Source of the DNA: Thermoanaerobaculales bacterium
GTDB lineage: Bacteria; Acidobacteriota; Thermoanaerobaculia; Thermoanaerobaculales; Sulfomarinibacteraceae
Direction of reading: 5' to 3'
Length of the DNA stretch: 64,000 bases
Assembly (NCBI GenBank): GCA_025456145.1
Contig: JALOLD010000008.1
Coordinates: 1,265-65,264, forward strand
Shown here piece after piece: positions 10,479-55,518 of the stretch. The notes beneath the pieces are model-generated. The model was not told the DNA's origin, made no database searches, and saw nothing but the letters and a program-made list of their open reading frames with translations. Position 1 is the stretch's first letter; each line of letters opens with the position of its first letter. The position numbers and the translations under genes were made by a program.

Positions 10479-10586
10479 GCGTCGCGACGTCACAACCACG
10501 AAGGCACGAAGGCACGAAGGCATCGCACACGAATCCTCGGAACCTCGTGAGTGCTTCGTGTCTTGGTGGTTGTGATGCTGCGACGC
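10479..10586. repeat. family-A palindromic element (copy A1), arms made of GAAGGCAC octamer repeats
   Basis: Left end GCGTCGCGACGTCACAACCAC(GAAGGCAC)x3 then GAAGGCATCGCACACGAA. Right end is the imperfect reverse complement (..GTGCTTCGTGTCTTGGTGGTTGTGATGCTGCGACGC). It fills the whole gap between two convergent stop codons (10476 and 10588). Confidence 0.85.
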
Positions 10587-10587
10587 C

Positions 10588-11613
10588 TCAACAGATCCGC
10601 GGGAGATCCGTACCGCTGAGCATGTCGAGGGGTCGGATGCTGCCGATCTCGGTCTCGAGGACCACCGGGATGTCGCCGTCGGCCGCTGTCTCGACCCGGG
10701 CGAAGACCGCCGCGTCACGGCCCTCCGGGTGATCCCGGAAGGCCTCGAGGGCGCGGTCGGCCTGCTCGCCCGGGACCCAGGCGAGGACCCGGCCCTCGCA
10801 GGCCAGCGCGAGCGGCTCGAGGCCCAGCACCTCGCACACCGCACGGACCTCCGGCCGGATCGGCAGGGTGGTCTCGGTGAGCACCATCCGCAGGCCGCTC
10901 CTGCCCGCGACCTCGTTGCACACGGTGAGCACGCCTCCCCGGGTCGGGTCGTGCATCGCGTGGATCTCGACCCCGGCGGCGAAGACCGACTCGATGAGGC
11001 CGGTCAGCGGCGCGCAGTCCGAGCGCAGGCCGGCGGCGTCGAGGCCGTGCCGGGCGGCCATGATCGTCGCGCCGTGGTCGCCGAGCGGTCCCGAGGCGAT
11101 GACGACGTCGCCGGGCGCGATCCGAGCGTCGGAGATCTCGCGGCCGGGCGGTACCACGCCGAGACCCGCGGTGACGGCGTAGATCCGGTCGCCCTTGCCG
11201 CGGGGTACCACCTTGGTGTCGCCGGCGACGATCTGGACCCCGGCCTCGGCGGCGGCGCGGGCGGCGCCGTCGGCGCACCGACGCAGCAGCTCGCCGTCGG
11301 CGCCCTCCTCGAGGATCAGACCCCAGGTCAGCCAGAGCGGGCGCGCTCCGGCGACCGAGAGGTCGTTGACCGTGCCGCAGACGCTGAGATAGCCGAGATC
11401 GCCCCCCGCGAAGACCGGCGGGTCGACGACGAAGCCGTCGGTGGTCAGCGCCGGGCGGCCCGGGGGCAGCTCGGGGAGCACCGCGGCATCGGTCAGGGTG
11501 GCGAGAAAGGGGTTGTCGAGCGCCGGGAGAAAGGTGCCGGCGACGAGCTCGTGGGTCAGCCGTCCCCCCGAGCCGTGGGCGAGCAGGAGGCGGTCCGGGG
11601 TGCGGCGCTTCAC
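10588..11613 (-). CDS. hypE: [NiFe] hydrogenase maturation protein HypE
   Basis: AIR-synthase-like HypE sequence ending in the conserved C-terminal ...GTDLPRIC. GTG start overlaps the hypD stop (GTGA). Confidence 0.9.
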   Translation of the reverse strand: MKRRTPDRLLLAHGSGGRLTHELVAGTFLPALDNPFLATLTDAAVLPELPPGRPALTTDGFVVDPPVFAGGDLGYLSVCGTVNDLSVAGARPLWLTWGLILEEGADGELLRRCADGAARAAAEAGVQIVAGDTKVVPRGKGDRIYAVTAGLGVVPPGREISDARIAPGDVVIASGPLGDHGATIMAARHGLDAAGLRSDCAPLTGLIESVFAAGVEIHAMHDPTRGGVLTVCNEVAGRSGLRMVLTETTLPIRPEVRAVCEVLGLEPLALACEGRVLAWVPGEQADRALEAFRDHPEGRDAAVFARVETAADGDIPVVLETEIGSIRPLDMLSGTDLPRIC

Positions 11614-12716: not shown

Positions 12717-12940
12717 AGGTCCGCCATGTTGTCGGCGTACTGACGGAGCAGGGCCAGCGTCTCGGCCGCCTCGTCGGCGTTGACCGCACCGATCGCGTAG
12801 CCGGCGTGGATGAGCACGTGCTCGCCGACCTCGGCCTCGGGCAGGAGCATCAACGAAACCGTCCGGCGGACGCCGTCCAGCTCGACGACGCCCTCGAGCT
12901 CGTTGCGTTCGGTCAGCAGCATCGGAATCGCAAGACACAT
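12713..12940 (-). CDS. hypC: [NiFe] hydrogenase assembly chaperone HypC
   Basis: Canonical N-terminus MCLAIP. 75 aa. Confidence 0.9.
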   Translation of the reverse strand: MCLAIPMLLTERNELEGVVELDGVRRTVSLMLLPEAEVGEHVLIHAGYAIGAVNADEAAETLALLRQYADNMADL

Positions 12941-13043: not shown

Positions 13044-13169
13044 TTGATGAATGATGAATGATGAAATCAACGCATGGTGCGTGGCGGCGTGCGCTCGGAA
13101 CCGGGCACGTCGCACGTGCCGGTTGAACAGACGCCACCAAGCCGCCCCTCATCATTCATCATTCAACAC
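13044..13169. repeat. family-B palindromic element (copy B1), arms made of TGATGAA heptamer repeats
   Basis: Left arm TTGATGAATGATGAATGATGAAA. Right arm CTCATCATTCATCATTCAACAC. Inner hairpin CCGGGCACGT-CGC-ACGTGCCGG. It lies between hypC and hypF and ends 1 nt from the hypF stop. Confidence 0.8.
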
Positions 13170-16157: not shown

Positions 16158-16288
16158 CCTCCGTGGGTGCCTCCGTGGGTGCCCCACCGGTGCCAGGAGA
16201 AACAAAGTTAACAATCTTCTCCCGCCGGTGCATTGGCTCCGAGGGGGACCGAACAGGGAAGGTCGTTAACTTTGTTTCTCCCGGCACC
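16158..16288. repeat. palindromic element with AT-rich core arms, inside the hypA-hypB spacer
   Basis: Tandem CTCCGTGGGTGC x2 (16158-16183). Then the 24-bp inverted repeat GGTGCCAGGAGAAACAAAGTTAAC (16189-16212) / GTTAACTTTGTTTCTCCCGGCACC (16265-16288), with 1 mismatch. Confidence 0.75.
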
Positions 16289-16297
16289 CCTCATGGT

Positions 16298-16663
16298 TCA
16301 TGGGCACCCTTCCTCATCCGTTTCGAAGCTGACCTCGATCACGTCGAGCTCGTCGCCGCCGCGGACCTCGAGCGGCGTGCCGCAGTCCGGGCAGATGCGC
16401 AGCCAGGAGCCCTCGGACCGGTCCTTGGCCTGGTTGCAGGCGGGGCAGCGCTGATCGGCGCGGCAGAAGTCGACGGTCAGCGCGGCTCCCTGATCGGGGG
16501 TGTCGGCGACCACCGCCTCCCAGCCGAAGACCAGGAGGTCGGGCTCGACCGCGGCGAGCTCGCCGACCGCGATGCGGACCTGCCGGAGCCGGCCGCCGCC
16601 GTGCTCGGCCACGGTGTCGCGGCAGGTCCGGTAGATCTCGATGGCGATGCCCATTTCATGCAT
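16298..16663 (-). CDS. hypA: hydrogenase nickel-insertion protein HypA
   Basis: N-terminus MHEMGIA, zinc site CPACN...CPDCG. 121 aa. Confidence 0.9.
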   Translation of the reverse strand: MHEMGIAIEIYRTCRDTVAEHGGGRLRQVRIAVGELAAVEPDLLVFGWEAVVADTPDQGAALTVDFCRADQRCPACNQAKDRSEGSWLRICPDCGTPLEVRGGDELDVIEVSFETDEEGCP

Positions 16664-18262: not shown

Positions 18263-18540
18263 GGCTACCCGGACCGTGCCTATCCGGATCGCTCAGGTTC
18301 TGACCGATCCCGATCCCGATCCCGATGCGACGTCCGGAAATCCGTCGCAACCACGAAGACACCAAGACACGAAGGCGAGCGCGAAGGAGCTGGTGACGCG
18401 GGCCTCCCGCCCGCAGCTCGGCCATCGACTGGATCGAGATGCCGACGGCCGGGGCGCGCGTGAGTCGGGATCGGGAACGGGATCGGGAACGAAAGCACCC
18501 CCACCCTGACTCAAGGGGATAGGTATAGTCCGGGCTAGCC
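18263..18540. repeat. composite three-layer palindromic element (includes a solo family-A arm)
   Basis: Outer IR GGCTACCCGGACCGTGCCTATCC (18263-18285) / GGATAGGTATAGTCCGGGCTAGCC (18517-18540). Middle arms (CCGATC)x3 at 18304-18327 versus GGGATCGGGAACGGGATCGGGAAC at 18467-18491. Internal CCGTCGCAACCACGAAGACACCAAGACACGAAGG at 18342-18375 is a family-A left arm. Confidence 0.75.
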
Positions 18541-19506: not shown

Positions 19507-19732
19507 GGTAAAGAAGTGAGAAGGTGAGAAGGTGAAAAGGTGAAAAGGATAGGAGGTCAGGTAGTTAGACGTGAGACGTGAGACGTAAGACGACGGACGA
19601 CCAGATCGTGGGAGCCAGACGTCTAACGTCTCACGTCTCACGTCTCACGTCCTTCGTCTTCCAGCGAGCGAAGCGAGCGCTGACCTTCTCACTTTCTGAC
19701 CTTCTCACCTTCTCACCCCCTCACTCTTCACC
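19507..19732. repeat. nested double palindrome: outer arms (GTGARAAG)n, inner arms (GACGTGA)n
   Basis: Outer left GTGAGAAGGTGAGAAGGTGAAAAGGTGAAAAGG (19517-19548) versus outer right CCTTCTCACTTTCTGACCTTCTCACCTTCTCAC (19684-19716). Inner left AGACGTGAGACGTGAGACGTAAGACG (19567-19592) versus inner right CGTCTAACGTCTCACGTCTCACGTCTCACGTC (19620-19651). Confidence 0.85.
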
Positions 19733-19766
19733 AAAAAACCGGGCCGGGGGACGCCCCCCGGCCCGG
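19733..19766 (-). terminator. Rho-independent terminator after the hydrogenase large-subunit gene
   Basis: On the minus strand: CCGGGCCGGGGG-loop-CCCCCGGCCCGG followed by TTTTTTGG, 24 nt after the hybC stop. Confidence 0.7.
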
Positions 19767-19789
19767 TGGTTGACGATCGCTCGATCGAC

Positions 19790-27231: not shown

Positions 27232-27255
27232 GATCGTCCTTCAATCGACCTCGAC

Positions 27256-27281
27256 GCCGGGCCTTTGGGCCCGGCGTTTTT
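27256..27281 (+). terminator. Rho-independent terminator of hppA
   Basis: GCCGGGCC-TTTG-GGCCCGGC followed by GTTTTT, 25 nt after the hppA stop. Confidence 0.75.
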
Positions 27282-27287
27282 CGTCTC

Positions 27288-27347
27288 CCGCGTCCGAGTC
27301 CGCGTCCGCGTCCGCGTCCGAATCCGCCTCCGAATCCGCCCCCGACG
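27288..27347. repeat. hexamer-phased array (CCGNNT)x10: outer-left arm of the cassette
   Basis: CCGCGT CCGAGT CCGCGT CCGCGT CCGCGT CCGAAT CCGCCT CCGAAT CCGCCC CCGACG. This is the reverse complement of the array at 30305-30340. Confidence 0.8.
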
Positions 27348-27382
27348 AGGCCGACCCACCGCCGCCGACTTCGTCGGCGGCT

Positions 27383-27566
27383 CTAGCCCGGACTATTCAT
27401 GAGCTATCTGCTGCGGCCAACGATGCATCCGCGTCAGCCGCGTTTTCTCACCTCGGGGTGCTCGACGTACCGTCAAGTACGCCTCCGCGCCCCGAGGTGA
27501 GAAAACGCGACTGCCATCGGCGCCTCGTTGCCCTCGCGACGAAACCTCATGAATAGTCCGGGCTAG
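27383..27566. repeat. 184-bp palindromic element with two nested perfect inverted repeats
   Basis: 21-bp perfect IR CTAGCCCGGACTATTCATGAG (27383-27403) / CTCATGAATAGTCCGGGCTAG (27546-27566). 20-bp perfect IR 27439-27458 / 27490-27509 (CGCGTTTTCTCACCTCGGGG). The terminus motif TAGCCCGGACTAT is shared with the 18263-18540 element. Confidence 0.85.
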
Positions 27567-27745
27567 CGTCTCCGTCCACGGAGGCCATCGAGCGCGGCGC
27601 TCGCTGTCGTCCGCGGCCGAAGCCGCGCCGCGGCTGGCGCCGCGCCAGTGGGTCTCGCGCGACTAGTCGGTACGGGGTACATCCGAAGCTCATCGGCGCT
27701 CGGCCCGCCCCCACCCCTCCACCCACCCGCCCTCAGAAATCCGCA

Positions 27746-27892
27746 CGGGGTCGGACCCCGTCACGGATTTCTGAAGGGATGAGAGCTCAGGACTCGTGCT
27801 TCGACGGCACTGAACGATTCGGCGCGTGTCCTTCCAGAGCAAGGTCTTCGGGCGGGGTCGGACCCCGTCACGGATTTCTGAAGGGATGAGAG
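27746..27892. repeat. two 40-bp direct repeats (107-bp period); the first is embedded in a 42-bp hairpin
   Basis: CGGGGTCGGACCCCGTCACGGATTTCTGAAGGGATGAGAG occurs at 27746-27785 and 27853-27892. Copy 1 is preceded by TCAGAAATCCGCA, which pairs with CACGGATTTCTGA. Confidence 0.7.
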
Positions 27893-27922
27893 TCCAGGGC
27901 GTGCGACTCGGTATGACCATCA

Positions 27923-27946
27923 AGACGTCTAGAAGAGGGGTATAAT
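27923..27946 (+). promoter_or_regulatory. candidate toxin-antitoxin promoter/operator
   Basis: Perfect -10 TATAAT (27941-27946), 24 nt before the antitoxin ATG. Palindromes AGACGTCT (27923-27930) and TCTAGA (27928-27933) sit where a -35/operator would lie. Confidence 0.4.
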
Positions 27947-27970
27947 CATGACGGCTTCTGGGGGTGGAGG

Positions 27971-28222
27971 ATGCGGCCGACAAACACCAAGAAGGTCACG
28001 ATCTCGATGCCGCGCGGACTCATCCTGTTCGCAGATCAGATGGCCGACGCGCTCGGGCTGACCCGGAGCGGGTTCATTGCCGCGACCCTCGAAAGGGCGC
28101 GAGAGAACGAGCTTGAACGGCTGGGCGCCGAGGGCTACAGGTTCTACTCAGAGGAATCGAGGGAGTTCGCCGCTGCAAGCGAGGCCGCGGTGGCGGAGGC
28201 GATGGAAGATGACTATCGCTAG
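27971..28222 (+). CDS. ribbon-helix-helix (CopG/MazE-like) antitoxin
   Basis: 83 aa. N-terminal KKVTISMPRGLILFADQMA fits an RHH beta-strand plus helix. Acidic C-terminus. Overlaps the toxin start by 14 nt. Confidence 0.75.
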   Translation: MRPTNTKKVTISMPRGLILFADQMADALGLTRSGFIAATLERARENELERLGAEGYRFYSEESREFAAASEAAVAEAMEDDYR

Positions 28223-28586
28223 GGGCGAGATCCACTGGGTCGAGTTCGATCCCGTCAAGGGCAGCGAGCAGGACGGACTTCGCCCAGCCCTCGTGATACA
28301 GAACGATGTCGGCAACCGGTTCAGCCCGACGACGGTCGTGGCGGCGATCACGAGGACGCTTCCCCCGAAGCCCTACCCGTTTGTCGTCCTCATCGAGCCT
28401 GAGGAGAGCGGTCTGCCCGACCGCTCCGTCGTCAACTGCTCCCAGGTGGCGACGATCCAGTCGACGGGAGCGGCGTCGCGATTCCGACCGCCTCCCGGCG
28501 AGTCGGATCTCCGGCCGATCGGCATGCTCGGCGACGCCACGATGGAGCGGGTCGCGGCGGCTCTGCGGTACAACCTGGGGATCTGA
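28209..28586 (+). CDS. mazF: MazF/PemK-family endoribonuclease toxin
   Basis: RGEIHWVEFDPVKGSEQDGLRPALVIQND, PTTVVAAITR, VVNCSQVATI: typical PemK fold motifs. Confidence 0.85.
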   Translation: MTIARGEIHWVEFDPVKGSEQDGLRPALVIQNDVGNRFSPTTVVAAITRTLPPKPYPFVVLIEPEESGLPDRSVVNCSQVATIQSTGAASRFRPPPGESDLRPIGMLGDATMERVAAALRYNLGI

Positions 28587-28674
28587 GCAGGGGCAAGGGC
28601 AAGGGCGACATCCGTCGCAGTGGCAGAAGCAGAGGCAGCACCAGCGGCAGAGACGGGGACAGGTGCCGTGGCCG
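28587..28674. repeat. hexamer-phased array (GCANNG-like, about 15 units): inner-left arm
   Basis: GCAGGG GCAAGG GCAAGG GCGACA TCCGTC GCAGTG GCAGAA GCAGAG GCAGCA CCAGCG GCAGAG ... It fills the entire mazF-methyltransferase gap. GCAGTG is the reverse complement of the CACTGC unit at 30107-30304. Confidence 0.7.
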
Positions 28675-29547
28675 CTATTGACGCCGTCGCCGTCCGGTCA
28701 GATCGTGGACGGCGCCATCCTCGTCGAGGTAGTAGGGGACTTCGGGGTCAAATGGCGTGTCGTGGATCCGGCCGTCGAGCCTCCGGTACTTGGCGGCCAG
28801 ATCGTTGCGGACCGCCGTCGCGCGGACGAACCCTCCACCGGGTCTGGAGATCGCCGAGTCGACCCGGAGCTCGGCCTCTTCTAGGGCCGTCTGGAGCGCG
28901 CGCATGTTCGGTGCGAAGCAGTTGGTGAAGTCGCCGTTGAGGCTGGCCCCCGGATAGGCCTGCCAGAGCGGGATGTCGATGAGCGCTGGATTGAGCGCCT
29001 CGAGGGTCGTCACCGCACCGTCCGGGAGGACGACGTGCTCGTCGATGAGAAACGTCGCCACGTACAGCTCGGCGCCGGGTTTCATGACCGAGCGGATCGA
29101 ATCGAGGGCGGCGAGCGGTTTTCGGAGGTGGTAGAGAACGCCGAGGAAGAGCACTCGGTCGAATCGGCCGTGCGTTTCCGGATCGAGGTTGTAGACGATG
29201 TCGACCAGATAGGCGGCATCGCTGCCCAAGATCTCGGCGGCAGTGGCAAACCCCGTTGCCGTCGCCTCGACGAAGTCCATCGCGGTGACCTCGGCGCCGC
29301 GTCGTTCGAGCTCGAACGTGAAGTACCCGTCCGAGCAGCCGATGTCGAGGGCTCGCACACCGTGAAGTCGTGCCGGCAACCCGAGCTCGTCGAGGAGCGG
29401 CATCTTCTGCCGATTGGAGTCGTCACCCGGGGTGATGACTCCCGGAGCGAGCTCGATCTCGTGCCACCAGCGGCCGCGGGCGGCGATCCGCCGCCGGATC
29501 TCCTCGGGGTCGGTGATTCGCGGGGGGTACGGCATGGCTTCGAACAC
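28675..29547 (-). CDS. class I SAM-dependent methyltransferase (DUF1698/Methyltransf_9-like N-terminal WxHxIEL motif)
   Basis: WWHEIELAPGVITPG, then the SAM motif I VRALDIGCSDGYFTFEL, and an acidic residue after beta-2 (VTAMDF). Confidence 0.8.
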   Translation of the reverse strand: MFEAMPYPPRITDPEEIRRRIAARGRWWHEIELAPGVITPGDDSNRQKMPLLDELGLPARLHGVRALDIGCSDGYFTFELERRGAEVTAMDFVEATATGFATAAEILGSDAAYLVDIVYNLDPETHGRFDRVLFLGVLYHLRKPLAALDSIRSVMKPGAELYVATFLIDEHVVLPDGAVTTLEALNPALIDIPLWQAYPGASLNGDFTNCFAPNMRALQTALEEAELRVDSAISRPGGGFVRATAVRNDLAAKYRRLDGRIHDTPFDPEVPYYLDEDGAVHDLTGRRRRQ

Positions 29548-29572
29548 GCATACGGTCGCAGGCGGGCCGGTG

Positions 29573-29941
29573 TCACTGACGCATCATTCGCCAGGTCATG
29601 GCACGGACCTCGTCGAAGAGGGCCAGGGCGGACGATGCTCGGTTCGTCGTCACAGCTCCCGCTCCAATGAGAAGTCGAAGATGTGTGTCGACCTCCTTCG
29701 CGGATCCGTACGCGATGCGGTAGTGGTGCACGCGATCCCGGCCGGACCGCCCGGCGCCTTCGGCGAGGTTTGCCGCCACCGAGGATGCCGACCGGATCAC
29801 CTGATCCGCCAGACTCTTGAGCGGCGCGGGCACCTTGACAACCACCGCGTTCGCGATGGCTGCGGCCTCCACGGCCTTCGAGTGGGCGATGAAGCTGCTG
29901 GTTGGTTGCGGTCCGCGCATGGTCACCTCCGGGTGGTTCAT
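29573..29941 (-). CDS. four-helix-bundle protein (23S rRNA intervening-sequence protein family)
   Basis: LADQVIRSASSVAANLAEGAGR...RVHHYRIAYGSAKEVDTHLRL is the family signature. Start is uncertain: ATG 29941 chosen, while the ORF extends to 30007 through the hairpin. Confidence 0.7.
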   Translation of the reverse strand: MNHPEVTMRGPQPTSSFIAHSKAVEAAAIANAVVVKVPAPLKSLADQVIRSASSVAANLAEGAGRSGRDRVHHYRIAYGSAKEVDTHLRLLIGAGAVTTNRASSALALFDEVRAMTWRMMRQ

Positions 29942-29952
29942 GCCCTCCCCCC

Positions 29953-30034
29953 AGCCGATGAGCCGAACGCGGTCAAGGGGTCGCCCGCCGCGGGCGATGC
30001 ACTTCACCCCTTGACCGCGTTCGGCTCATCGGCT
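29953..30034. repeat. 28/29-bp perfect inverted repeat (long hairpin) at the 5' end of the four-helix-bundle gene
   Basis: AGCCGATGAGCCGAACGCGGTCAAGGGG (29953-29980) / CCCCTTGACCGCGTTCGGCTCATCGGCT (30007-30034), with about a 26-nt loop. Confidence 0.85.
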
Positions 30035-30106
30035 ACTCGTGTCGTCGGAACCACCCGGAGTGACCACGCGTGGCCGCGACCACGGCAACTCCGTCCCGAT
30101 CACCGG

Positions 30107-30304
30107 CACTGTTGCTGCCCCTGGCGCTCTTGCTGTCACTGTCTCTGCTACTGCCACTGCCACTGCCACTGCCACTGCTACTGCCACTGCCACTGCCACT
30201 GTCTCTTTCACTGTCTCTGCTACTGCCACTGCCACTGCCACTGCCACTGTCTCTGTCACTGTCTCTGCCACTGTCACTGCCGCTGATGCTGTCTGTGTCT
30301 CTGC
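30107..30304. repeat. hexamer-phased array (33 units, CACTGC/CTCTGC/TACTGC/CACTGT): inner-right arm
   Basis: Uninterrupted 6-nt phase for 198 bp. Reverse complement of the 28587-28674 array. Confidence 0.85.
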
Positions 30305-30340: not shown

Positions 30341-30364
30341 GTTTTTCGTACCGGCAAGCCGGCA

Positions 30365-30393: not shown

Positions 30394-30429
30394 GAAACGG
30401 CTTGCGCCGATTTGATGAGAGTCAGATGC

Positions 30430-32949: not shown

Positions 32950-32964
32950 GCTGCCGCCCCCTTC

Positions 32965-36482: not shown

Positions 36483-37285
36483 TGAACACTCCGTTCGGCC
36501 GCGCCCTCGCGCACCTTCATCGTCGGCTCCTTGAACAGGGCGAAACGGAGCCAGCGGAAGGCGAACCGGAGGAGCGCCACGTCGTTGGTCTTGATGTCGG
36601 CGACCAGGTCGTCGTCGAGCTCGAATCGCTCGAGAAAGGTCGACTCGAACACGAACTCGCGGAAGCTGTCGAGGTCGTAGCAGGCGGTGTAGAGCATGTG
36701 CATCCGCTTGGGGTCGAGCTGGCGCCCGCCGATGAACCAGGGGTGGCTGACCAGCTCGCGGAAGCCGGCCTCGATCTCGTCCCTCTCGACCAGGCGCTGA
36801 TCGGCGCGCCACCTCTCGGCGGTCCAGGCGACCGCGTCGGGCTGAAGCCGCCCCTGGCAGTGGTCGTCCTCGAACACGAAGAAGATCGGCTCGGGCTCGA
36901 CCCCGGCGCGGGCCGGCGGGATCGCCATGCCGAGCGGGTACATCCGGCAGGCCCACGGTCGATCCTGGTAGACGGTGCAGCCCTCCTCGCCGACGAACGG
37001 GCATTTCTTCCCCTCGTCGTCGCGCATCTTCAGAAGCACCACCGGAAGCTGGAGGTCCTTGGTGATCGGGTTGCCGGTGTAGGTGTCGAGGAAGAGCCGG
37101 GTGTGCAGCCCGGTGCGGCGCGCGAGCTGGAGCACGTCGAGAGGCGTCAGGATGATGTTGACGTCGGCGCAGCACTGGTTGAAGCAGGGGACCCCGGGGT
37201 GGCAGGTGAACTCGAAGCTCTCGTCGGCGGCGAGCTGGCGCTTGCCGGCGAGGTAGGCCGGGAGGTGGATCTCGGGATCGCTCAT
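36479..37285 (-). CDS. YkgJ/UPF0153-type cysteine-cluster (zinc- or iron-chelating) protein
   Basis: FTCHPGVPCFNQCCAD and KCPFVGEEGCTVYQDRPWACRMYP (the family hallmark), plus DDHCQG. 268 aa. ATGA overlaps at both ends. Confidence 0.75.
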   Translation of the reverse strand: MSDPEIHLPAYLAGKRQLAADESFEFTCHPGVPCFNQCCADVNIILTPLDVLQLARRTGLHTRLFLDTYTGNPITKDLQLPVVLLKMRDDEGKKCPFVGEEGCTVYQDRPWACRMYPLGMAIPPARAGVEPEPIFFVFEDDHCQGRLQPDAVAWTAERWRADQRLVERDEIEAGFRELVSHPWFIGGRQLDPKRMHMLYTACYDLDSFREFVFESTFLERFELDDDLVADIKTNDVALLRFAFRWLRFALFKEPTMKVREGAAERSVQ

Positions 37286-37590
37286 CGGAGAGCTCCCGGG
37301 TCGCTGCCGCAGCCGGTCACGACCGCCTCGATGATCCGGTCCTTGAGCGCGTCGACCGACCACACGGGGAGCGGCGTGGGCTTGCCGTTGACCGGGTCGA
37401 CCCGGTAGCGGTAGGACGCCTTGACCGCGAAGTTGGTCTCCATGTGCTCCCAGCCACGGAGGAAGTACGGGCACTCGTCGTTGAAGCAGGCGAGCTGGAA
37501 CTCCGACTGCCACCCGGTGTTGTCGGGCAGCTCGAAGGGTTGGAGATCGTGGTTGCAGTGGGGACAGACGAAACGGTTTTCTTGAGTCAT
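37282..37590 (-). CDS. small zinc-ribbon-like protein, unknown function
   Basis: 102 aa. Cys knuckles CPHC and CFNDEC. No family recognised. Coding is supported by the coupled ATGA overlap with the next gene and by its position in the operon. Confidence 0.6.
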   Translation of the reverse strand: MTQENRFVCPHCNHDLQPFELPDNTGWQSEFQLACFNDECPYFLRGWEHMETNFAVKASYRYRVDPVNGKPTPLPVWSVDALKDRIIEAVVTGCGSDPGALR

Positions 37591-37725
37591 CAAATCGGTA
37601 GCCTCGTGATCTCCCGGGGAAAGCCGGCGGAGGATCCGCGGTCGGCTCTTGAGAGCCCGTTCGACCTGCCGCGATCACGGTCTCGGCGACTCTCATGGGC
37701 GCTGTCGGCGAGGTCGTGGCGCGGG

Positions 37726-37741
37726 TGATCCGGCCGGATCA
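37726..37741. promoter_or_regulatory. 16-bp perfect palindrome between the aprA terminator and the qmo sub-operon
   Basis: TGATCCGGCCGGATCA is self-complementary over all 16 positions. It lies 14 nt downstream (minus-strand sense) of the terminator's T-tract. Confidence 0.4.
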
Positions 37742-37755
37742 TGCCCTCAGGGATC

Positions 37756-37793
37756 GAGAAAAGCGGCCCCGGACGCCGGAGCGTCCGGGGCCG
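37756..37793 (-). terminator. intra-operon Rho-independent terminator/attenuator after aprA
   Basis: Minus strand: CGGCCCCGGACGC-TCCG-GCGTCCGGGGCCG (13-bp stem) followed by CTTTTCTCG. Begins 15 nt after the aprA stop. Confidence 0.7.
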
Positions 37794-37807
37794 TGATGGT
37801 CACCGGA

Positions 37808-39685
37808 TCACTTCATCGGGAGGATGTCTCTCTTGAGCATCGTCCACTCTTCGGTCTCCGGGTGCATGGTGCAGTTGACGAAGCACAGCCACTTGTCGTT
37901 GTCGAGCTTGGGGAAGTCGGCGCGGAAGTAGTAGCCGGGCCAACGGGTCTCTTCGCGGTACAGGATGGTCCGGACGTGGGCCTCGGCCTGGTAGGTCCGG
38001 TGGTAGTTCTCCCAGCACCGCATGAGCTCGTGAAGGTCCTTGGCGCCGAGGTACTTCGAGTCCTCCTTGAGCATCCCGAGGAGCTCGAGACCGCGCTCGC
38101 AGAGGGCCTTCGAGGTGGTGAACTGGGCGCCCACGCCGCCCGCGTACTCGTCCATGATCTTCTGCAGCCGGAACATGTACATTTTGGGAAGGATGTAATG
38201 CGGGTTGACGTCGATCTGCGAGGTGAAGTCCTTGTGCTCGGCAAACGTGTCGAGCGGCTTCAGGGTCGCGGCCTTGAGCGCCTCGATGGTGGCGTTGTCG
38301 ACCGTCGGCATCGCCGGCTTCTCCTTGACGAGGTAGCGGATCGCGGCCTTGGCGGCGATCCGGCCCTCGGCGTGGGAGCCCGAGGAGAACTTGTGCGACG
38401 AGGCGCCGGTGGCGTCGCCGGCGGCGAACAGCCCCTTGACGGTCGTCATGCACTCGTATCCCCAGAAGTACGCCGGCGGCGCGAGGTCCTCGGGACCGCT
38501 CACCCAGGCGCCCGAGGCGCCAGAGTGCGAGCCGATGAAGTAGGGCTCGGCGGCCGCGATCTCGGACGACTTCTCTTCGGGCTGGACGTCGGAGGCCGCC
38601 CACAGGATGGCCTGCGAGATCGTCATGTCGAGGAAGTCTTCCCAGGCCTCGCTCTCGAGCTCCTTCATCTTCGCCTTGTAGGCCTTGGGGTCGTCCTTGT
38701 AGGCGTCGGCGATCTTCTGGATCGCTTCCTCGGTCCGCATGTAGATCGGGCCCTTGCCCTGCATCACGTCGAGCATGCCGAGGTAGTTGCGGAGGTTGGC
38801 CGGGATCGGCTTGACCAGACCGTAGGGCTTCCAGTTCTGGAGCTCGTCCTTGCGCTCGACCATGTACTCGCCGCCGAAGGCGTTGGTCGCGCGGGACTTG
38901 AAGAGCAGGAACCAGGCGCCGACCGGGCCGTAGGCATCCTTGAACCGGACCGGGATGAAGCGCACTTCCTGGCAGGTCATCTCGGCGCCGGCCTTCAGGG
39001 TGAAGTAGGCCGACGAGCCGGAGTTCCACGGCGGGTACCAGGCGCGGCCGAGGCCCTCGCCCGAGGAGCGCGGCTTGAACACGTGGACGGCGCCGCCCAT
39101 GGCGCAGAAGATCGCCCGGGCCTTGAAGATGTAGAACTTCTCTTCGCGGACCGAGAAGCCGTAGGCGCCGATGCACTGGTCGCCCTTCATGATCGGGCCG
39201 ACGATGAAGACGCGCTCGTAGATGTTCTCGGTGCCCAGGTGGTTCTTGGCGGCCTCGGCCACCACGACCTTGTAGGACTCACCGTTGATCATGAGCTGCC
39301 AGCGGCCCTCGTGGACGTAGCCGCCGTCCTCGGTCTTCCAGATCGGCAGGCCCCACTTCTCGAAGAGGTGGACCGACGAGTCGACGTGACGGGCGATGTT
39401 GGCGACGAGGTCCTCGCGGGCGACGCCCATGAGGTCCTGCTTGACGTAGTTGACGTAGTCCGCGACGGTGTTCTGCCCGTCCTTCAGACCGACGTACTGG
39501 TTGATCGCAGACAGACCCATGGCGACCGCGCCGGAGCGGTCGACCGCGGCCTTGTCGACGAGGGTGACTTTCAAGCCGTGCTTCTTGGCCCAGTAGGCCG
39601 CTTCGACGGCCGCGCCGCAGGAGGCCATGCCGCCGCCGAGGATGAGAAGATCGGTCTCGACCTGGACAGTTTCGAATTTTGCCAT
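37808..39685 (-). CDS. aprA: adenylylsulfate (APS) reductase alpha subunit
   Basis: FAD motif DLLILGGGMASCGAAVEAAYW, plus the fumarate-reductase-like fold and length (625 aa). ATG 39685 is preceded by GGGAGGGGA. Directly follows aprB. Confidence 0.93.
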   Translation of the reverse strand: MAKFETVQVETDLLILGGGMASCGAAVEAAYWAKKHGLKVTLVDKAAVDRSGAVAMGLSAINQYVGLKDGQNTVADYVNYVKQDLMGVAREDLVANIARHVDSSVHLFEKWGLPIWKTEDGGYVHEGRWQLMINGESYKVVVAEAAKNHLGTENIYERVFIVGPIMKGDQCIGAYGFSVREEKFYIFKARAIFCAMGGAVHVFKPRSSGEGLGRAWYPPWNSGSSAYFTLKAGAEMTCQEVRFIPVRFKDAYGPVGAWFLLFKSRATNAFGGEYMVERKDELQNWKPYGLVKPIPANLRNYLGMLDVMQGKGPIYMRTEEAIQKIADAYKDDPKAYKAKMKELESEAWEDFLDMTISQAILWAASDVQPEEKSSEIAAAEPYFIGSHSGASGAWVSGPEDLAPPAYFWGYECMTTVKGLFAAGDATGASSHKFSSGSHAEGRIAAKAAIRYLVKEKPAMPTVDNATIEALKAATLKPLDTFAEHKDFTSQIDVNPHYILPKMYMFRLQKIMDEYAGGVGAQFTTSKALCERGLELLGMLKEDSKYLGAKDLHELMRCWENYHRTYQAEAHVRTILYREETRWPGYYFRADFPKLDNDKWLCFVNCTMHPETEEWTMLKRDILPMK

Positions 39686-39695
39686 GTTCCCCTCC

Positions 39696-40127
39696 CTACT
39701 TCGTCCACACAGCGCAGCCCAGGGAGTCGGGCTCGGTGTAGAGAACCGGGCCGTCGAGGCTCGGATCGGTGTTGAAGCCACCGAGCGGGTCCGCCTGGCC
39801 CTCAGCCGTCGTCCGGATGGGGAACTTGAACCGCTTCACCTGACCACTGCGGAACTTGACCGTCCACATGATCGAGTCGGTGGAGCGCAGCGGCACCACG
39901 GACGCGCCCATCGGCACGAAGTCCGCATAACCGCGGACGTCGACCGCCTGCGTCGGGCAGATCTTGACGCAGTTGTAGCACTCCCAGCACATCTCCGGCT
40001 CACGGTTGTAGGCCTTCATCTTCTCCTTGTCGAGAACCATGAGGTCATTGGGACAGATGTACTGGCAGGCGGTCTTGTCGAGCGCCTTACACCCGTCGCA
40101 CTTCTCCACGTTCACAAAACTCGGCAT
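39696..40127 (-). CDS. aprB: adenylylsulfate (APS) reductase beta subunit
   Basis: CDGCKALDKTACQYICP and CWECYNCVKICP clusters, with the typical long C-terminal tail. ATG 40127 has AGGAGG 8 nt upstream. Confidence 0.92.
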   Translation of the reverse strand: MPSFVNVEKCDGCKALDKTACQYICPNDLMVLDKEKMKAYNREPEMCWECYNCVKICPTQAVDVRGYADFVPMGASVVPLRSTDSIMWTVKFRSGQVKRFKFPIRTTAEGQADPLGGFNTDPSLDGPVLYTEPDSLGCAVWTK

Positions 40128-40470
40128 GTACACATCCTCCTTTCGAGCTTGGGTTGTCTTGCGTGACGACCGAGTTCATATACCCTCATCGTCTGCGCCT
40201 CGTAGCAAGTCTTGTGCCCGTGTTCACAAAGACCGGTCGAGAGGGCTTCTCAGAATCGTCGAAGTTGTTGGGGTGCAGCGCTTTCGACGAGGCGCAACCG
40301 ACGGGGGTCCGGGCGGCGGGCTCGCCGGTCGCGGACCGGTCACTGGACCCGGGTGCGATCTGCCGGTGAGCCCGGCGAGCGGGCGAGCTTGAACGCCTAT
40401 CGCGCTGTGTCGTCGAAGTGTCTGGACTGACGAAACTTAGATAGGTCGGGGGGGATTCGACGAGGGTGTC

Positions 40471-48025: not shown

Positions 48026-48175
48026 CGTCGCAACCACCAAGACACGAAGTCACAAAGGCATCGCACACGAAGGGTTCGAATCCTCATCACAGCGATCGCG
48101 GTTGCCCGCAGTCGCCTGATGATCATCCGGTTCTTCGTGATTTCTTCGTGTCTTCGTGTCTTGGTGGTTGCGACG
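48026..48175. repeat. family-A palindromic element (copy A3) with 24-bp perfect terminal inverted repeats
   Basis: CGTCGCAACCACCAAGACACGAAG (48026-48049) / CTTCGTGTCTTGGTGGTTGCGACG (48152-48175). Internal GGCATCGCACACGAAGG is shared with A1 and A4. Lies between the convergent DASS and pepP stops. Confidence 0.9.
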
Positions 48176-49610: not shown

Positions 49611-49762
49611 CGTCACAACCACGAAGGCACGAAGGCACGAAGACATCGCACACCAAGAGGTCGGTATCGGATCTCGAGGACCGCGGCACGCCGGGGTCCT
49701 AGAAAGCCGAAGCCGGCTCGTGGCGATCGTATCGAGTCGTGGTGTCGTGGTGGGTGCGACGG
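49611..49762. repeat. family-A palindromic element (copy A4), degenerate right arm
   Basis: CGTCACAACCAC(GAAGGCAC)x2 GAAGACATCGCACACC on the left. GTCGTGGTGTCGTGGTGGGTGCGACGG on the right. Confidence 0.75.
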
Positions 49763-49831
49763 TGCGATGAACGAAAACGCCCGGGGGGTGAGACCCGGGC
49801 GTGAGACGTACTGTTGACCGTCGACGGTCGG

Positions 49832-53800: not shown

Positions 53801-55390
53801 GTCGAGCTCGCCGAGGGGCGCCCCGCTGCCCTCGATCCTCAGCCGGTGGTAGCCGCGATCGGGGATCGTCCCGCCCGCCAGGAAGAGCGAGCGCGCGGCC
53901 CCGGGCCGTGCACGGACGACGCCGTCCACCCCGTCGATGCTCACCATCGGGCGCAGGCTGCGGATCCGGCTCGAGGCGTAGCGGCCGGCAAGCATCTCGA
54001 GGACCAGGTCGAAGTGGCGGCGGGGCAGCCGGTGATAGGGGTCGGCGCGGCGGATCGAGGCGTAGAGCTCGTCGGCCGTCCGGTCGCCCGCCACGACCAT
54101 CGACAGCAGGACCTGGGCGAGCACGTCAAGGGCGTCGGTCACCGGCTCGATCGCCTCGATCTCGCCGTCGACCGCCGCGCGGGCGACCACCGCGGCCTCG
54201 AGGAGGTCGCGCCCGAGCAGCGGCATCAGCCGGGCGCGGCTGGTCTCGCCGACCCGGTGGCCGGCCCGCCCGACCCGCTGCAGCGTCGAGACGACCGATG
54301 GCGGGGTCTGGACGAGAACCACCTCGTCGATGGCGCCGATGTCGATGCCGAGCTCGAGGGAGCTGGTGGCGACGATCGCCCGGAGCTCGCCGCGCTTGAG
54401 GCGGGTCTCGACCTCGGTCCGGATCTCTCGCGACAGCGCGCCGTGGTGCGAGTAGGCGATCCGCTCGGGGCCGGCCTCGTTGATGAAGCGGGCGACCTTC
54501 TCGACCGAGCGCCGCGCGTTGCCGAAGACCAGGGTCGACCGGTTGCCGGCGATCGTCCGTCGCAGCTCGGCGCCGAGGGTGGTCCAGAAGGCGTCGGGCT
54601 CACGCCGGTCCTCCGAGGGCCGGGCGGCCGGTAGGACGACCTCGAGGTCGATGGCCTTGATCGCCTTACTGACCACCACCGAGACCGGACGCGGGCGGTA
54701 CTCGGGGTCGGTCGTGCCGTCGGCCGGGGCCCAGCCGCCGACCCAGGCGGCGATTTGCTCGCGCGGCCGGACGGTGGCCGACAGGGCGATGCGCTGGATC
54801 TCGCCGACCAGCTCGGACAACCGCTCCACCGCGGTGATCAGGTGGACCCCGCGCTTCGACCCGGCGACCGCGTGGACCTCGTCGAGGATGACGCAGCGCA
54901 GCCCGGAGAGGAGGCGACGGCCGCCGATCGAGGCGAGCAGGATGTTGAGCGACTCCGGGGTCGTGACGAGGATCTCGGGCGGCGAGCGCAGCATCCGGCG
55001 CCGGTCGTCGGCCGGCGTGTCGCCGGTCCGGCTTTCGACGCGAACCCGCGGGACCTCGGCGCCACGTCCGGCGAGCTCGGAGGAGATCGCGGTCAACGGC
55101 TCGGTCAGGTTGCGCCGGATGTCGGTGCCGAGGGCCTTGAGGGGCGACACGTAGAGCACGCGGACGCCGCCGGTCTCCCAGGCGCCGGTGAGCAGACGGT
55201 CGATCGCGCAGAGGAAGGCGGCGAAGGTCTTGCCGCTGCCGGTCGGGGCGCAGAGCAGGACGTGATCGCCGGCAGCGATGTGAGGCCACGCCGCGGTCTG
55301 GATCTCGGTCGGCGTGCCGATCGACCGTGAGAACCACTCGGCGATGGGCGCCGAGAAGGCTCGGAGGGAGGGATCGGGCGAGGAGGTCAT
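50897..55390 (-). CDS. lhr: Lhr-family large ATP-dependent helicase (long form with C-terminal extension)
   Basis: APTGSGKT, DEVH, SATV, HHGALS, and the RVGRAGH motif VI. About 1497 aa, as in long Lhr proteins. Confidence 0.88.
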   Translation of the reverse strand: MTSSPDPSLRAFSAPIAEWFSRSIGTPTEIQTAAWPHIAAGDHVLLCAPTGSGKTFAAFLCAIDRLLTGAWETGGVRVLYVSPLKALGTDIRRNLTEPLTAISSELAGRGAEVPRVRVESRTGDTPADDRRRMLRSPPEILVTTPESLNILLASIGGRRLLSGLRCVILDEVHAVAGSKRGVHLITAVERLSELVGEIQRIALSATVRPREQIAAWVGGWAPADGTTDPEYRPRPVSVVVSKAIKAIDLEVVLPAARPSEDRREPDAFWTTLGAELRRTIAGNRSTLVFGNARRSVEKVARFINEAGPERIAYSHHGALSREIRTEVETRLKRGELRAIVATSSLELGIDIGAIDEVVLVQTPPSVVSTLQRVGRAGHRVGETSRARLMPLLGRDLLEAAVVARAAVDGEIEAIEPVTDALDVLAQVLLSMVVAGDRTADELYASIRRADPYHRLPRRHFDLVLEMLAGRYASSRIRSLRPMVSIDGVDGVVRARPGAARSLFLAGGTIPDRGYHRLRIEGSGAPLGELDEEFVWERSVGDTFTLGVQTWRVERITHNDVFVTPTPARSAMAPFWRAEELDRSSFVAERMAELLEAVDARLGEPELAAELRRSYRLDAAAAAELVRHLRAQREATGCLPHRHRVIVEHTSPPAGRGDYRQLVLHTLWGGRVNRPFAIALSAAWEARYGARPEIAHSADCVVLVHPATIDVGDPFELVAVERLDDLLRSGLERSGFFGARFREAAGRALLLPRAAPGKRVPLWVSRQRSKELLEAVRRHDDFPIVLEAWRTCLRDEFELDVLRRRLDEVADGRAVVRHVATETPSPFSAQVAWKQTNQLMYEDDTPTVGSGARADLVREIALAEHLRPRIPAGLAAELGERLQRLAPGWSPRGPDELLEWLKERVLIPLDEWRALLEAIDRDHRAPASESAASVAHRVVIVGVGRDRAVVCPVEGLARVARALGRELTDRDLRPITGADPPAEAIEQARQRVVASETDDTDQPAGLGELASLLGEWLRFYPPVDPAWVGRCLGLEPPDLEMAIGELEAAQEVVVGELVEGVGGPQVCDRENLERLLRRARSEARPELEPVDARALPLLLAGHQGLGARDAAPEDLEQALERLFGLPLPVELWETEIFPARLDPYHPEWLDGLLGTSDLRWVGAGNGKVMFALETELGALRIAPEAPDDGTPAAAILPYPAGRFTFDELVRGSGLDSGRLTRRLWRAAWAGEVSSDTFDALRSGLAAGFAASPPGSATVTRGRGRRAGLDRWRRDRPFTGAWFALPEIGDGDDDDILQRQDEALDRARVVLDRYGIVFRALLEREPSELRWSRLFRALRLLELAGEIVAGRFIEGVDGLQFASHEAVRRLREGLDEDLVWWVNAIDPASPCGLGLEGAPWDLPRRVPGNHLVFHGRRLVIVSVRRGAELTIAPPPDDPGLAGYLDFLAVRLGRRARPMSRIDIETINGEPAPASPYREVLARRFHVTRQPSSLRLARKY

Positions 55391-55417
55391 CGGGACCGTT
55401 GGAGGCGGTGAGTCAAG

Positions 55418-55518
55418 ATCGTCGATTGTGAATGGTGCGGGGTGAACGATGCCACGGCCGGGCTCTCGACGCATCCTCCGGCCGATGGCGACGTCGATTC
55501 ATCATTCATCATTCAGCG
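55418..55518. repeat. family-B element (copy B2), left arm degenerate
   Basis: The right arm GATTCATCATTCATCATTCAGCG is identical in core to B1. The left arm TGTGAATGGTGCGGGGTGAACGATG is decayed. Lies between the lhr start and the upstream gene's stop. Confidence 0.6.

Follow-up and report, generated by a model that had tools for sequence, protein, structure and literature searches.

The window, the whole 64-kb stretch of DNA that was analysed, belongs to a Thermoanaerobaculales MAG (Acidobacteriota). It harbors long intergenic hairpins in which both arms are built from short tandem repeats, with unit sequences that are unrelated among elements. The features are listed below, with the strand where one applies.

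10479-10586: Family A hairpin, copy 1, occupying the whole spacer that separates hypE (stop 10588) from a convergent response-regulator/kinase-like gene (stop 10476).
13044-13169: Family B hairpin flush with the hypF stop codon (13170); (TGATGAA)3 pairs with (TTCATCA)2.4.
16158-16288: hairpin of the hypA/hypB spacer, with a 31-nt inverted repeat (16189-16219 / 16258-16288).
18263-18540: composite element; its outer termini are related to GCTAGCCCGGACTAT, its arms are (CCGATC)3.8 / (TCGGGA)4, and it encloses a solo arm of Family A.
18342-18386, plus strand: Family A solo arm without partner arm, nested in 18263-18540.
19507-19732: two-layer hairpin, hoxH to hycI; the outer arms are (GTGARAAG)n, the inner ones (GACGTGA)n.
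27288-27345, plus strand: (CCGCGT/CCGAGT)n array following the H+-PPase terminator; its inverted partner, 30308-30340, is about 3 kb distant.
27383-27566: strong, long two-tier hairpin whose arms are not tandem repeats.
28617-28660, plus strand: (GCAGWGGCAG)n array, inverted partner of 30133-30300.
29573-30007, minus strand: 23S_rRNA_IVP gene (profile family PF05635, Avd-like four-helix bundle).
29953-30034, minus strand: hairpin with a perfect 29-bp stem, just upstream of the IVP coding sequence; structure-conserved family.
30133-30300, plus strand: array upstream of the IVP gene, consisting of about 25 hexamers, (CTGCCA/CTGTCT)n.
30308-30340, plus strand: (CGGACG)5.5 array, inverted partner of 27288-27345.
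48026-48175: Family A hairpin, copy 3, between convergent Na/sulfate symporter and M24 aminopeptidase genes.
49611-49762: Family A hairpin, copy 4, right arm degenerate, between a GC terminator (~49776-49806) and the M24 peptidase start.
55418-55518: Family B hairpin between orf140 and lhr, right arm clear, left arm degenerate.

Every one of the ten or more intergenic elements located by the sequence-only reading is present, and they fold much better than shuffled sequences (z from -6 to -13; -6.1, -13.2 and -13.2 for 18263-18540, 19507-19732 and 27383-27566, respectively). Strict complementary tandem-array pairs, no more than 400 nt apart, number four in the window, versus a mean of 0.06 and a maximum of 1 in 100 dinucleotide-preserving shuffles. 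All of the elements are intergenic and almost fill their spacers, and they often abut or overlap stop codons. The tandem-arm architecture proposed as common to them holds for most, but is lacking in 27383-27566 and only loosely followed by 16158-16288. On one flank of the latter lies a 12-nt tandem unit, (CCTCCGTGGGTG)2.2, a duplication of the hypB Shine-Dalgarno region; its other flank has a doublet of heptamers overlapping the stop codon of hypA. Arrays besides the hypB one overlap stop codons.

Several sequences recur within the 64 kb. The Family A core CAACCACSAAGRCACSAAG occurs six times in the window, versus 0.01 expected, and marks three hairpins (10479-10586, 48026-48175 and 49611-49762) plus the solo arm at 18342-18386. 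Family A is thus found four times and Family B twice, as are the GCTAGCCCGGACTAT termini, which are common to 27383-27566 and 18263-18540, a link absent from the earlier reading. The elements share terminal inverted repeats, small size and multiple copies with MITEs. No target-site duplication is visible at Family A copies 1, 3 and 4, and no transposase, reverse transcriptase, integrase or RAYT (IS200/IS605-like Y1 TnpA) gene was found among the window ORFs.

The elements measure 100-280 nt, are less GC-rich than the genome and contain no T-runs, and were rejected as intrinsic (Rho-independent) terminators. Canonical terminators, separate from the elements, adjoin two of them (19740-19770 and ~49776-49806), with 19507-19732 sitting just past the former, a conserved GC terminator. 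Integron attC sites were also rejected, as the termini GTCGCAAC…GTTGCGAC are unlike the RYYYAAC…GTTRRRY core and the window encodes no integrase. A search of Rfam at gathering thresholds gave no matches; those obtained at E up to 1 were miRNA hairpin models only and were attributed to chance.

A cassette carrying the 23S_rRNA_IVP gene separates the H+-PPase gene from the ATP sulfurylase gene. Its arrays form inverted partners 1.5-3 kb apart (27288-27345/30308-30340 and 28617-28660/30133-30300). A (CGGACG)n array adjoins the PPase gene in two relatives (L113 and L114), and a period-6/12 array is found at the position of 30133-30300 in 49 of 50 related IVP loci. The IVP gene has what appears to be a divergent start codon reading into the array, and its true start is likely the ATG at 29944. 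The hairpin at 29953-30034 shows compensatory changes in 17 of its 26 pairs across 40 loci. The 23S rRNA intervening sequences of Coxiella and Leptospira contain an S23p/IVP ORF, terminal inverted repeats and a variable tandem array directly upstream (PMC4990558). The cassette resembles them in its IVP/S23p ORF, bracketing inverted repeats and upstream short tandem repeats, but is located outside an rRNA gene (not in helix 25 or helix 45 of 23S; there is no rRNA in the window) and differs in its long arrays of period 6 or 12 and its conserved covarying hairpin.

We compared the element sites with seven orthologous loci from relatives, as the sequence-only reading had recommended. Turnover is rapid: the same site can be empty, contain a plain terminator, harbor an unrelated unit, or keep the element but with a different unit on both arms. 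Occupants of four spacers were compared among relatives with a HoxH identity of 90% or more. From hoxH to hycI, the window has GTGAGAAG+GACGTGA, L115 and L116 have GGAAGTTA/GGAGGTCA units, L113 has (GGTATTA)3 / (TAATACC)6, and L114 has no element. The spacer from orf130 to the epimerase gene exists in five unrelated states, two of which are about 50 nt long and empty. Between hypA and hypB, an element is found in the window only; the genes overlap in L113, and the spacer is 41 nt in L114 and 26 nt in L116. Between hypE and the response-regulator gene (copy 1), L113 has an orthologous Family A copy and L116 a plain GC palindrome. The site of copy 4 (49611-49762) contains only a plain terminator in L123. 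In the L113 and L116 orthologues of 13044-13169 the units have drifted and the cores differ, and the site of 55418-55518 harbors TTGAGAA, TGATGAA and TTATGAA variants in L122-L124.

Both arms of orthologous elements changed in concert (CACSAAGR versus CGCSAAGR; TGATGAA, TTATGAA or TTGAGAA). In alignments of near-palindromes, the element interior aligns better to the reverse complement of its orthologue while the flanks hold their orientation. The centre of the L113 copy corresponds to that of the window's copy plus 75 nt; this insert terminates with the adjacent CCGAGGATTC repeated in inverted orientation. No target-site duplication distinguishes filled from empty orthologous sites. Since close relatives carry different units at the same site and the units of both arms change together, these alignments fit the earlier proposal of many families produced by one mechanism.

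Family A, in the near-identical form AACCAC(NAAGRCAC)n…GTGGTT, extends over at least 12 phyla and over genomes with 33-74% GC, its AACCAC…GTGGTT termini and 8-nt unit being kept throughout. The assertion that the families lack shared sequence therefore fails for Family A. Loci from at least 12 phyla that had been picked for Family A alone also contain about 34 other hairpins of the tandem-arm type, whose unrelated units measure 6-9 nt (7 or 8 in most cases), which indicates that the design is general. Left and right arms may differ in copy number (3 versus 6.6, 9.3 versus 6.3, and 9.9 versus 4.6), and solo arms, non-nested arm orders and direct-orientation array pairs all occur. The 103 ORFs that flank elements in other phyla match 148 Pfam families, none of them matched by more than two ORFs, and show no enrichment of any gene family in the neighbourhood.

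The elements have about an even chance of being non-coding foldback repeats of a REP-, MITE- or STRR-like kind, located in gene 3' spacers and generated and remodelled by DNA-level processes. Replication slippage would produce tandem arrays of 6-9-nt units in intergenic DNA, and the existence of solo arrays is consistent with this step. Fold-back or template-switch synthesis would then invert a copy of the array or of adjacent sequence, giving a palindrome whose arms could expand and contract independently. Exchange between arms would carry a new unit variant to both of them and could flip the interior, and fresh material entering at the centre would create nested layers. If unit sequences drift fast, one process may thus yield many apparent families with one architecture. 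The host would tolerate the elements because spacers of convergent genes, stretches past terminators and gaps separating cistrons are places where a hairpin does no harm or is mildly useful. If they resemble REP elements and STRR hairpins in this respect, their roles there could include blocking 3' exonucleases, offering an RNase III site or backing up a terminator. The vocabulary of Family A, (CTGCCA)n and (CGGACG)n arrays recurs in an unrelated MAG (L038), which argues against this model. In-situ slippage by itself is insufficient to explain Family A termini and units conserved across phyla at 33-74% GC; dispersal or a shared sequence-specific constraint is needed. Some versions, Family A foremost, may also disperse within and between genomes by a putative trans-acting route.

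Mobility could have a larger part if the elements were MITE-like or foldback transposons, with terminal inverted repeats made of arrays of transposase-binding units, mobilised in trans by an enzyme encoded elsewhere and nested through insertion of new copies into the centres of old ones. This is somewhat unlikely. The multi-copy families of the window, the Family A termini conserved across phyla, the presence/absence polymorphism at orthologous sites, and the solo arms and non-nested orders all agree with it, as does the conservation of CAC and AAG next to variable positions that do not covary, a pattern expected of protein-binding sites. However, target-site duplication is visible at no copy, and a transposase is found neither in the window nor beside 60 elements in other phyla. 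None of the 25 Pfam families listed, out of the 148 matched by flanking ORFs in other phyla, is a transposase, and no RAYT gene was found among these 103 ORFs. An autonomous insertion sequence with matching ends was not detected in 1.1 Mb of loci, phages or plasmids, and Family A is absent from phages and plasmids. The concerted drift of orthologous units suggests evolution in situ, and one array duplicates local native sequence.

Selection could instead act on functional RNA or single-stranded DNA structures, such as terminators, mRNA stabilisers, RNase III sites or hairpins melted by, for example, cold-shock proteins, with tandem units favoured because they let the arms pair in slipped registers or let proteins bind periodically. 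In favour of this, the elements fold very stably and are placed like the cyanobacterial hupS-hupL STRR hairpins, at the 3' ends of genes and, in the hyp operon, between cistrons. Convergent and co-directional contexts account for 27 of 33 cases in other phyla, the Family A site in L116 is occupied by a plain terminator palindrome, and orthologous elements carry the same unit variant on both arms. Within Family A, CAC and AAG are conserved in sequence, and the variable unit positions show no register-specific covariation between arms: in register, the R position matches in 27 of 63 comparisons versus 29.6 expected by chance, and the N position in 77 of 130 versus 50.9. This contrasts with the IVP-associated hairpin, which does covary. 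Mismatches show no G·U bias (68 of G·U type versus 74 of A·C type), elements lie downstream of a separate canonical terminator in two co-directional cases, and the sites of close relatives can be empty; there is no Rfam match. With neither in-register covariation nor G·U excess, and with elements replaced by plain terminators or nothing, selection on one RNA structure as the driver, which the sequence-only reading had also raised, is not supported by these comparisons, and we consider structural selection improbable overall. The elements could also be scars of healed double-strand breaks: a polymerase of a telomerase-like or template-guided kind would add repeats to the two 3' ends, rejoining would leave the arrays inverted, and re-breakage at the hairpin tip would give inner layers. 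This would suit the 6-9-nt units, the independent copy numbers and variant composition of each arm, the variable centres and the unit vocabulary common to distant genomes, but is very unlikely. Neither a candidate enzyme nor a template was found, a large number of different templates would have to exist, one array is of local origin, and solo arrays and direct-orientation pairs exist.

The foldback-repeat reading leaves room for a broader proposal, which we regard as unlikely, that tandem-arm hairpins are a pan-bacterial class of elements generated by one conserved machinery. This could be an enzyme or nucleic-acid-binding protein acting in trans, whose recognition of short periodic units such as CACNAAG would account for Family A termini and unit being kept at 33-74% GC in at least 12 phyla. 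Alternatively, a universal fold-back/slippage pathway could build and grow palindromes from their centres. The Avd-like IVP genes would then be a candidate autonomous or helper component, as they are nearly always found beside long short-unit arrays and a covarying hairpin.

REP/BIME sequences are dispersed intergenic palindromes that occur in many copies at gene 3' ends and between cistrons, and are tolerated or used as mRNA 3' hairpins. The related REPINs have been reviewed (PMC3116915). The elements resemble REP, BIME and REPIN sequences in dispersal and position. REP families, however, have species-specific sequences without tandem units and are tied to RAYT, whereas the elements have arms of 6-9-nt unit arrays and an architecture common to unrelated units. 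As the sequence-only reading held, this goes beyond the classical REP/BIME case, where a family is a sequence. Assignment to REP/BIME as one imperfect 20-40-nt palindrome specific to a species or genus was rejected, given the differing units and the spread of Family A over at least 12 phyla. The STRR1-3 repeats have their own unit sequences and are hosted by heterocystous cyanobacteria. Like the elements, they are intergenic tandem heptamers with hairpin potential in hydrogenase operons (hupS-hupL), but their units and hosts differ from the 6-9-nt units and the Thermoanaerobaculales host of the elements, and they are usually treated as direct arrays. STRR heptamers are reported to form hairpins, e.g. 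between hupS and hupL (PMC2670836), and STRR have reportedly been found in the RNase P RNA gene as well (Vioque 1997). In the literature, no account was found for STRR of a cross-phylum hairpin class, concentric layers or orthologous-site turnover.

Galileo/Foldback elements are small and non-autonomous, with inverted ends of short tandem repeats (PMC3573991). MITEs and Foldback/Galileo elements share nesting and presence/absence polymorphism with our elements, which differ in their bacterial hosts, in units that evolve in concert in situ, and in that no target-site duplication, autonomous partner or transposase was found. TAACTGA heptamer arrays of Beggiatoaceae, Cyanobacteria and Bacteroidetes, for which "no mechanism [was] evident", number 169 direct and one inverted, and the corresponding spacers of relatives are shorter and lack repeats (MacGregor 2015; PMC4679880). 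They too are a specific short intergenic unit common to distant phyla, but are nearly all direct, upstream of start codons and not paired into hairpins. Whether the design had been described, a point the sequence-only reading left undecided, can thus be answered in part: neither Rfam nor the searchable literature contains Family A, STRR and TAACTGA arrays are partial precedents, and the tandem-arm hairpin is apparently undescribed outside the STRR repeats. Finally, among TGATGAA-type heptamer arrays inspected by eye, 11 of 12 co-directional cases share the order of the arms with respect to the upstream gene. The slippage/fold-back model does not predict the strand-specific origin or role at which this hints.

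Exact look-ups of two proteins of the window (GC content of about 70%) identify a Thermoanaerobaculales MAG of the Acidobacteriota, GCA_025490995.1, and an actinobacterial origin, as the GC content might suggest, was rejected. The window carries ordinary housekeeping genes, including the structural genes and hyp maturation cluster of a [NiFe]-hydrogenase, an H+-pyrophosphatase (H+-PPase), an adenylate kinase, Lhr and DinG-like helicases, and two-component systems. None of its ORFs matched a transposase, integrase, reverse transcriptase or RAYT. At 30430-40133, genes for dissimilatory sulfur metabolism (sat, aprBA, qmo/hdr-like genes and adenylate kinase) form a module that lies beside the [NiFe]-hydrogenase cluster and the H+-PPase gene. 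The sequence-only reading had described a set of intergenic palindromes whose arms are short tandem repeats of differing unit sequence, and every coordinate in its list was confirmed in the window. Family A hairpins, of the form AACCAC(NAAGRCAC)n…GTGGTT, lie at 10479-10586, 48026-48175 and 49611-49762, with a solo arm at 18342-18386, and Family B hairpins, built of (TGATGAA)n and (TTCATCA)n, at 13044-13169 and 55418-55518. Six copies of the Family A core are present where 0.01 would be expected, and the three elements that were folded whole gave z-scores of -6.1, -13.2 and -13.2. Using a TRF-based detector, four pairs of complementary tandem arrays no more than 400 nt apart were found; 100 shuffles that preserved dinucleotides gave a mean of 0.06 and a maximum of 1. 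These four strict pairs do not include the three Family A hairpins, as their arms are too degenerate to pass the pair test. Degenerate arms are also observed on the right of 49611-49762 and on the left of 55418-55518.

Two elements depart from this design. The element at 27383-27566 is indeed a strong hairpin, but its arms contain no tandem repeats, and that at 16158-16288 follows the tandem-arm rule only loosely. Elements 18263-18540 and 27383-27566 share the termini GCTAGCCCGGACTAT and thus form one family; no further copy of this terminus was found in 1.1 Mb of fetched loci, including those of close relatives. The elements occupy their spacers almost wholly. Gaps of 2 nt and 1 nt separate the first Family A copy from the stop codons on either side, and the first Family B copy abuts the hypF stop with zero gap. 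At 16158-16288, flanking sequence repeats the hypB Shine-Dalgarno region and overlaps with the hypA stop codon. In two co-directional spacers (hoxH→hycI and orf321→M24 peptidase), a separate canonical GC hairpin with a T-run directly precedes the element, and ordinary GC-rich hairpins are present in other spacers of the window.

We scanned the Family A core through a 596 Gb genome collection, for which the rough chance expectation is about 35 matches in total. This search revealed at least 111 loci. About eight hits (L011, L036, L043, L044, L076, L100, L102 and L110) are false positives that correspond to a conserved coding sequence of Solirubrobacterales (…EPVPGETNHEGTK…), and the remaining listed hits continue into more CACNAAGR units. 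A complementary arm is found within 400 nt for 50 of the 115 listed matches, with a median span of 86 nt. AAC or CAC immediately precedes the first CAC unit in 48 of the 76 arms that lay outside the selection of the search pattern, so the AACCAC…GTGGTT termini characterize the family. Two or three copies within 8 kb are present at several loci. Among the listed matches, the hosts include Acidobacteriota, Chloroflexota, Planctomycetota, Verrucomicrobiota, Myxococcota, Pseudomonadota, Bacteroidota (a Chryseobacterium of 33% GC), Bacillota, Actinomycetota (Bifidobacteriaceae MAGs), Lentisphaerota, WOR-3, KSB1 and Binataceae. Complete genomes with Family A include those of Holophaga foetida DSM 6591, Botrimarina colliarenosi, Marichromatium gracile and Methylobacter tundripaludum. 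The family is not restricted to one lineage, and its presence across phyla raises the sharp question of horizontal spread or a shared sequence-specific constraint. PLSDB plasmids contain no Family A, and the five matches in IMG/VR, about the number expected by chance, include no hairpin. Rfam gave no match at gathering thresholds and, at E values up to 1, only chance matches to miRNA hairpin models. No paper containing Family A strings was found in the searchable full-text literature, and the literature on foldback, tandem and inverted repeats offers partial precedents only. Standard repeat and RNA annotation thus misses this class, which has no Rfam match, no matching IS element in the 1.1 Mb of fetched loci, phages or plasmids, and a sequence absent from the searchable literature.

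The at least 111 Family A loci (about 0.85 Mb), chosen only for Family A, were re-scanned by TRF pairing. This yielded 61 tandem-arm hairpins, with periods of 6 (2 hairpins), 7 (21), 8 (29) and 9 nt (9). About 34 of them have units unrelated to Family A, for example AAATCCG, CAGTAAT, GACGATG, GATTGCG, CGGAATG, GGGCTCC, CGCAGAGG and CACAGAGA. Thus, the design rule proposed for the window is general, and the hairpin finding is both real and broader than could be known from the window itself. Nested layers of differing units were seen repeatedly, as in loci L033 and L034. In L019, the arm unit of a (CGATCC)4.5/(TCGGGA)4.5 hairpin is identical to that at 18304/18465 of the window. A single spacer of L038, an unrelated MAG in which ATP sulfurylase is 35% identical and located elsewhere, has the vocabulary of the window: a (CGCAGAGG)n hairpin and (CTGMCA)n and (CGGACG)n arrays together with a Family A arm. 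No neighboring gene is enriched: 148 Pfam families were found in 103 ORFs beside 60 elements, each no more than twice, and the 25 families listed for these ORFs include no mobility gene. The IVP gene (PF05635) found in the window was rejected as a usual neighbor of Family A, as phmmer and tblastn revealed no convincing homolog in the at least 111 loci. Family A hairpins with two callable neighbors lie in 12 convergent, 9 + 6 co-directional and 6 divergent spacers, and the direction of the purine-rich arm relative to the genes (9 vs 6) is not significant.

Orthologous sites were compared in close relatives recovered through HoxH (at least 90% identical; L113-L116) or through the M24 peptidase (79-82% identical; L122-L124).

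States of orthologous intergenic sites in the window and its relatives.
hoxH→hycI: one conserved GC terminator is kept by all genomes compared; it is followed by (GTGAGAAG)n and (GACGTGA)n in the window, by a homologous element of GGAAGTTA/GGAGGTCA units in L115 and L116, by (GGTATTA)3…(TAATACC)6 in L113, and by sequence without tandem arms in L114.
orf130→epimerase (convergent): five unrelated states, two of them empty, of about 50 nt each.
hypA→hypB: a 131-nt element in the window only; hypA and hypB overlap in L113.
hypF→hypC: a Family B-like element in all three genomes with the region recovered.
orf140→lhr: a Family B-like element in all four genomes with the region recovered.
hypF→hypC and orf140→lhr: heptamers vary by genome (TGATGAA, TTATGAA or TTGAGAA), with broadly matching arms; cores differ and spacers range from 125 to 339 nt.
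M24 peptidase→next gene: Family A in the window; CGCSAAGR on both arms of an element with that architecture in L122; a heptamer element in L123.
hypE→RR: occupied by Family A in two cases (window and L113) and by a plain GC palindrome in L116.

These sites constitute a natural system for the origin, growth, flipping and turnover of palindromes in bacterial chromosomes. Copy number is frequently unequal between arms, and a non-nested arm order exists (A-B-C-centre-C'-A'-B' in L122). The interiors of two elements fit the reverse complement of their ortholog better than its direct strand (79.5 vs 61, and 129 vs 75.5), and their outer flanks keep the original orientation. The centre of the L113 Family A element equals that of the window plus 75 nt, and the end of this insert is an inverted copy of the adjacent CCGAGGATTC. 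Of 12 co-directional cases with TGATGAA-type arrays, 11 (judged by eye) share the arm that comes first when read from the upstream gene. Some arrays overlap a stop codon or ribosome-binding site and can thereby alter gene ends. A (GTTATGA)n array (12811-12848) contains the final codons and stop of L113 orf130, the L116 hypF stop lies inside an (AATTATG)n array (8945-8968), and the window hypA stop lies inside a CCATGAR doublet (16290-16300). Heptamers with TGA or TAA provide stop codons in all three frames. Directly within the tandem arms, many elements of the window, L113, L116 and L122-L124 have the innermost stem CCATCGCA…TGCGATGG, at times itself tandemly repeated. CATCGCA…TGCGATG was rejected as a shared inner stem: it recurs in many elements of this clade, but the 7-mer shows no overall enrichment (9 copies in the window against 6.5 expected).

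The pairing between arms was examined for Family A (50 hairpins). At the variable N of CACNAAGR, the two arms match in 77 of 130 cases against 50.9 by chance, and at R in 27 of 63 against 29.6. Mismatches of the G·U type number 68 on one strand and 74 for the other. The potential to pair is thus explained by a conserved unit copied in inverted orientation rather than by compensatory evolution. The evidence fits DNA-level generation, in which slippage, inverted duplication and exchange between arms would produce the elements, and it fits arrays of protein-binding sites as well. At gene 3' ends, the elements might in addition have a mild role as RNA, which has been proposed for REP elements and STRR hairpins (PMC2670836). 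Selection of one RNA fold appears unlikely given the covariation and mismatch counts and the fact that elements are dispensable and replaceable at orthologous sites. We infer, rather than demonstrate, how the elements form. They are best filed among dispersed intergenic palindromes and STRR repeats, from which they are distinguished by a cross-phylum sequence family and by rapid turnover at orthologous sites. If this is true, a single fast-evolving foldback class would account for much of the unexplained intergenic DNA in Acidobacteriota, Planctomycetota, Chloroflexota, Verrucomicrobiota and other phyla.

The hexamer arrays of the cassette in the window belong to an IVP-linked element.

Features of the cassette.
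27232-30430: variable interval between the convergent H+-PPase and sat genes.
27.28-30.34 kb: insert in this interval, bracketed by inverted hexamer arrays.
27383-27566: hairpin inside the cassette.
27746-27791 and 27853-27898: 46-nt direct repeat, 96% identical, copies 107 nt apart, upstream of the toxin-antitoxin pair; the first copy makes a small hairpin with sequence upstream.
27971-28222: HicB/RHH-like antitoxin, half of a mazEF-like pair.
28209-28586: MazF/PemK toxin, half of the mazEF-like pair.
28675-29547, minus strand: methyltransferase gene.
29573-30007, minus strand: PF05635 IVP (Avd-like) gene.
30133-30340: hexamer arrays upstream of the IVP gene.

The subset of cassette genes differs among relatives (L113-L115). 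A metagenome scan with the window IVP protein gave 240 relatives, and 80 IVP contigs (L125-L204) were examined. A period-6/12 array is present upstream of the IVP gene in 49 of the 50 loci with more than 150 nt upstream and ends a median of 66 nt before the start, against a background of 0.095 arrays per 300 nt. Forty-two of the 80 contigs stop within 200 nt upstream of the gene, at the position of the array, indicating that metagenome assemblies are broken by these elements. To our knowledge, the function of PF05635 is known only within diversity-generating retroelements, and the link to the arrays provides a concrete handle on this widespread family. A hairpin of about 85 nt, located between array and IVP start (29953-30034 of the window, minus strand), has the form UAGCCG…GUCAAGGG-loop-CCCUUGAC…CGGCU. 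Its structure is conserved, with compensatory double changes in 17 of its 26 pairs across 40 loci. It has no counterpart in Rfam and could be either an RNA element or a site in single-stranded DNA.

Beside the array, on the strand opposite the IVP gene, a conserved GGAG…ATG (CCCGGAGTGACC-ATG), corresponding to a ribosome-binding site and start codon, reads into the hexamer array (L125-L183). The predicted translation would consist of dipeptide repeats that differ by locus (RS, RP, LP or EP). In the window (about 30050-30300, plus strand), the ATG of this divergent start is replaced by ACG, and a GTG is found at 30070. The hexamer arrays linked to IVP may be coding, and combining them uncritically with the 7-8-nt hairpins is not advisable. 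The Coxiella 23S IVS is similar to the cassette in that an S23p ORF is paired with variable tandem heptamers (PMC4990558). Finally, an 894-nt spacer of the relative L124 (2471-3364) contains a possible remnant of a truncated IVP gene surrounded by (CTGYCG)n hexamer arrays; the remnant gave a weak tblastn match (E = 0.23) and has some local DNA similarity to the 3' end of the window IVP gene. If real, this remnant would suggest that the IVP gene and the arrays move together.
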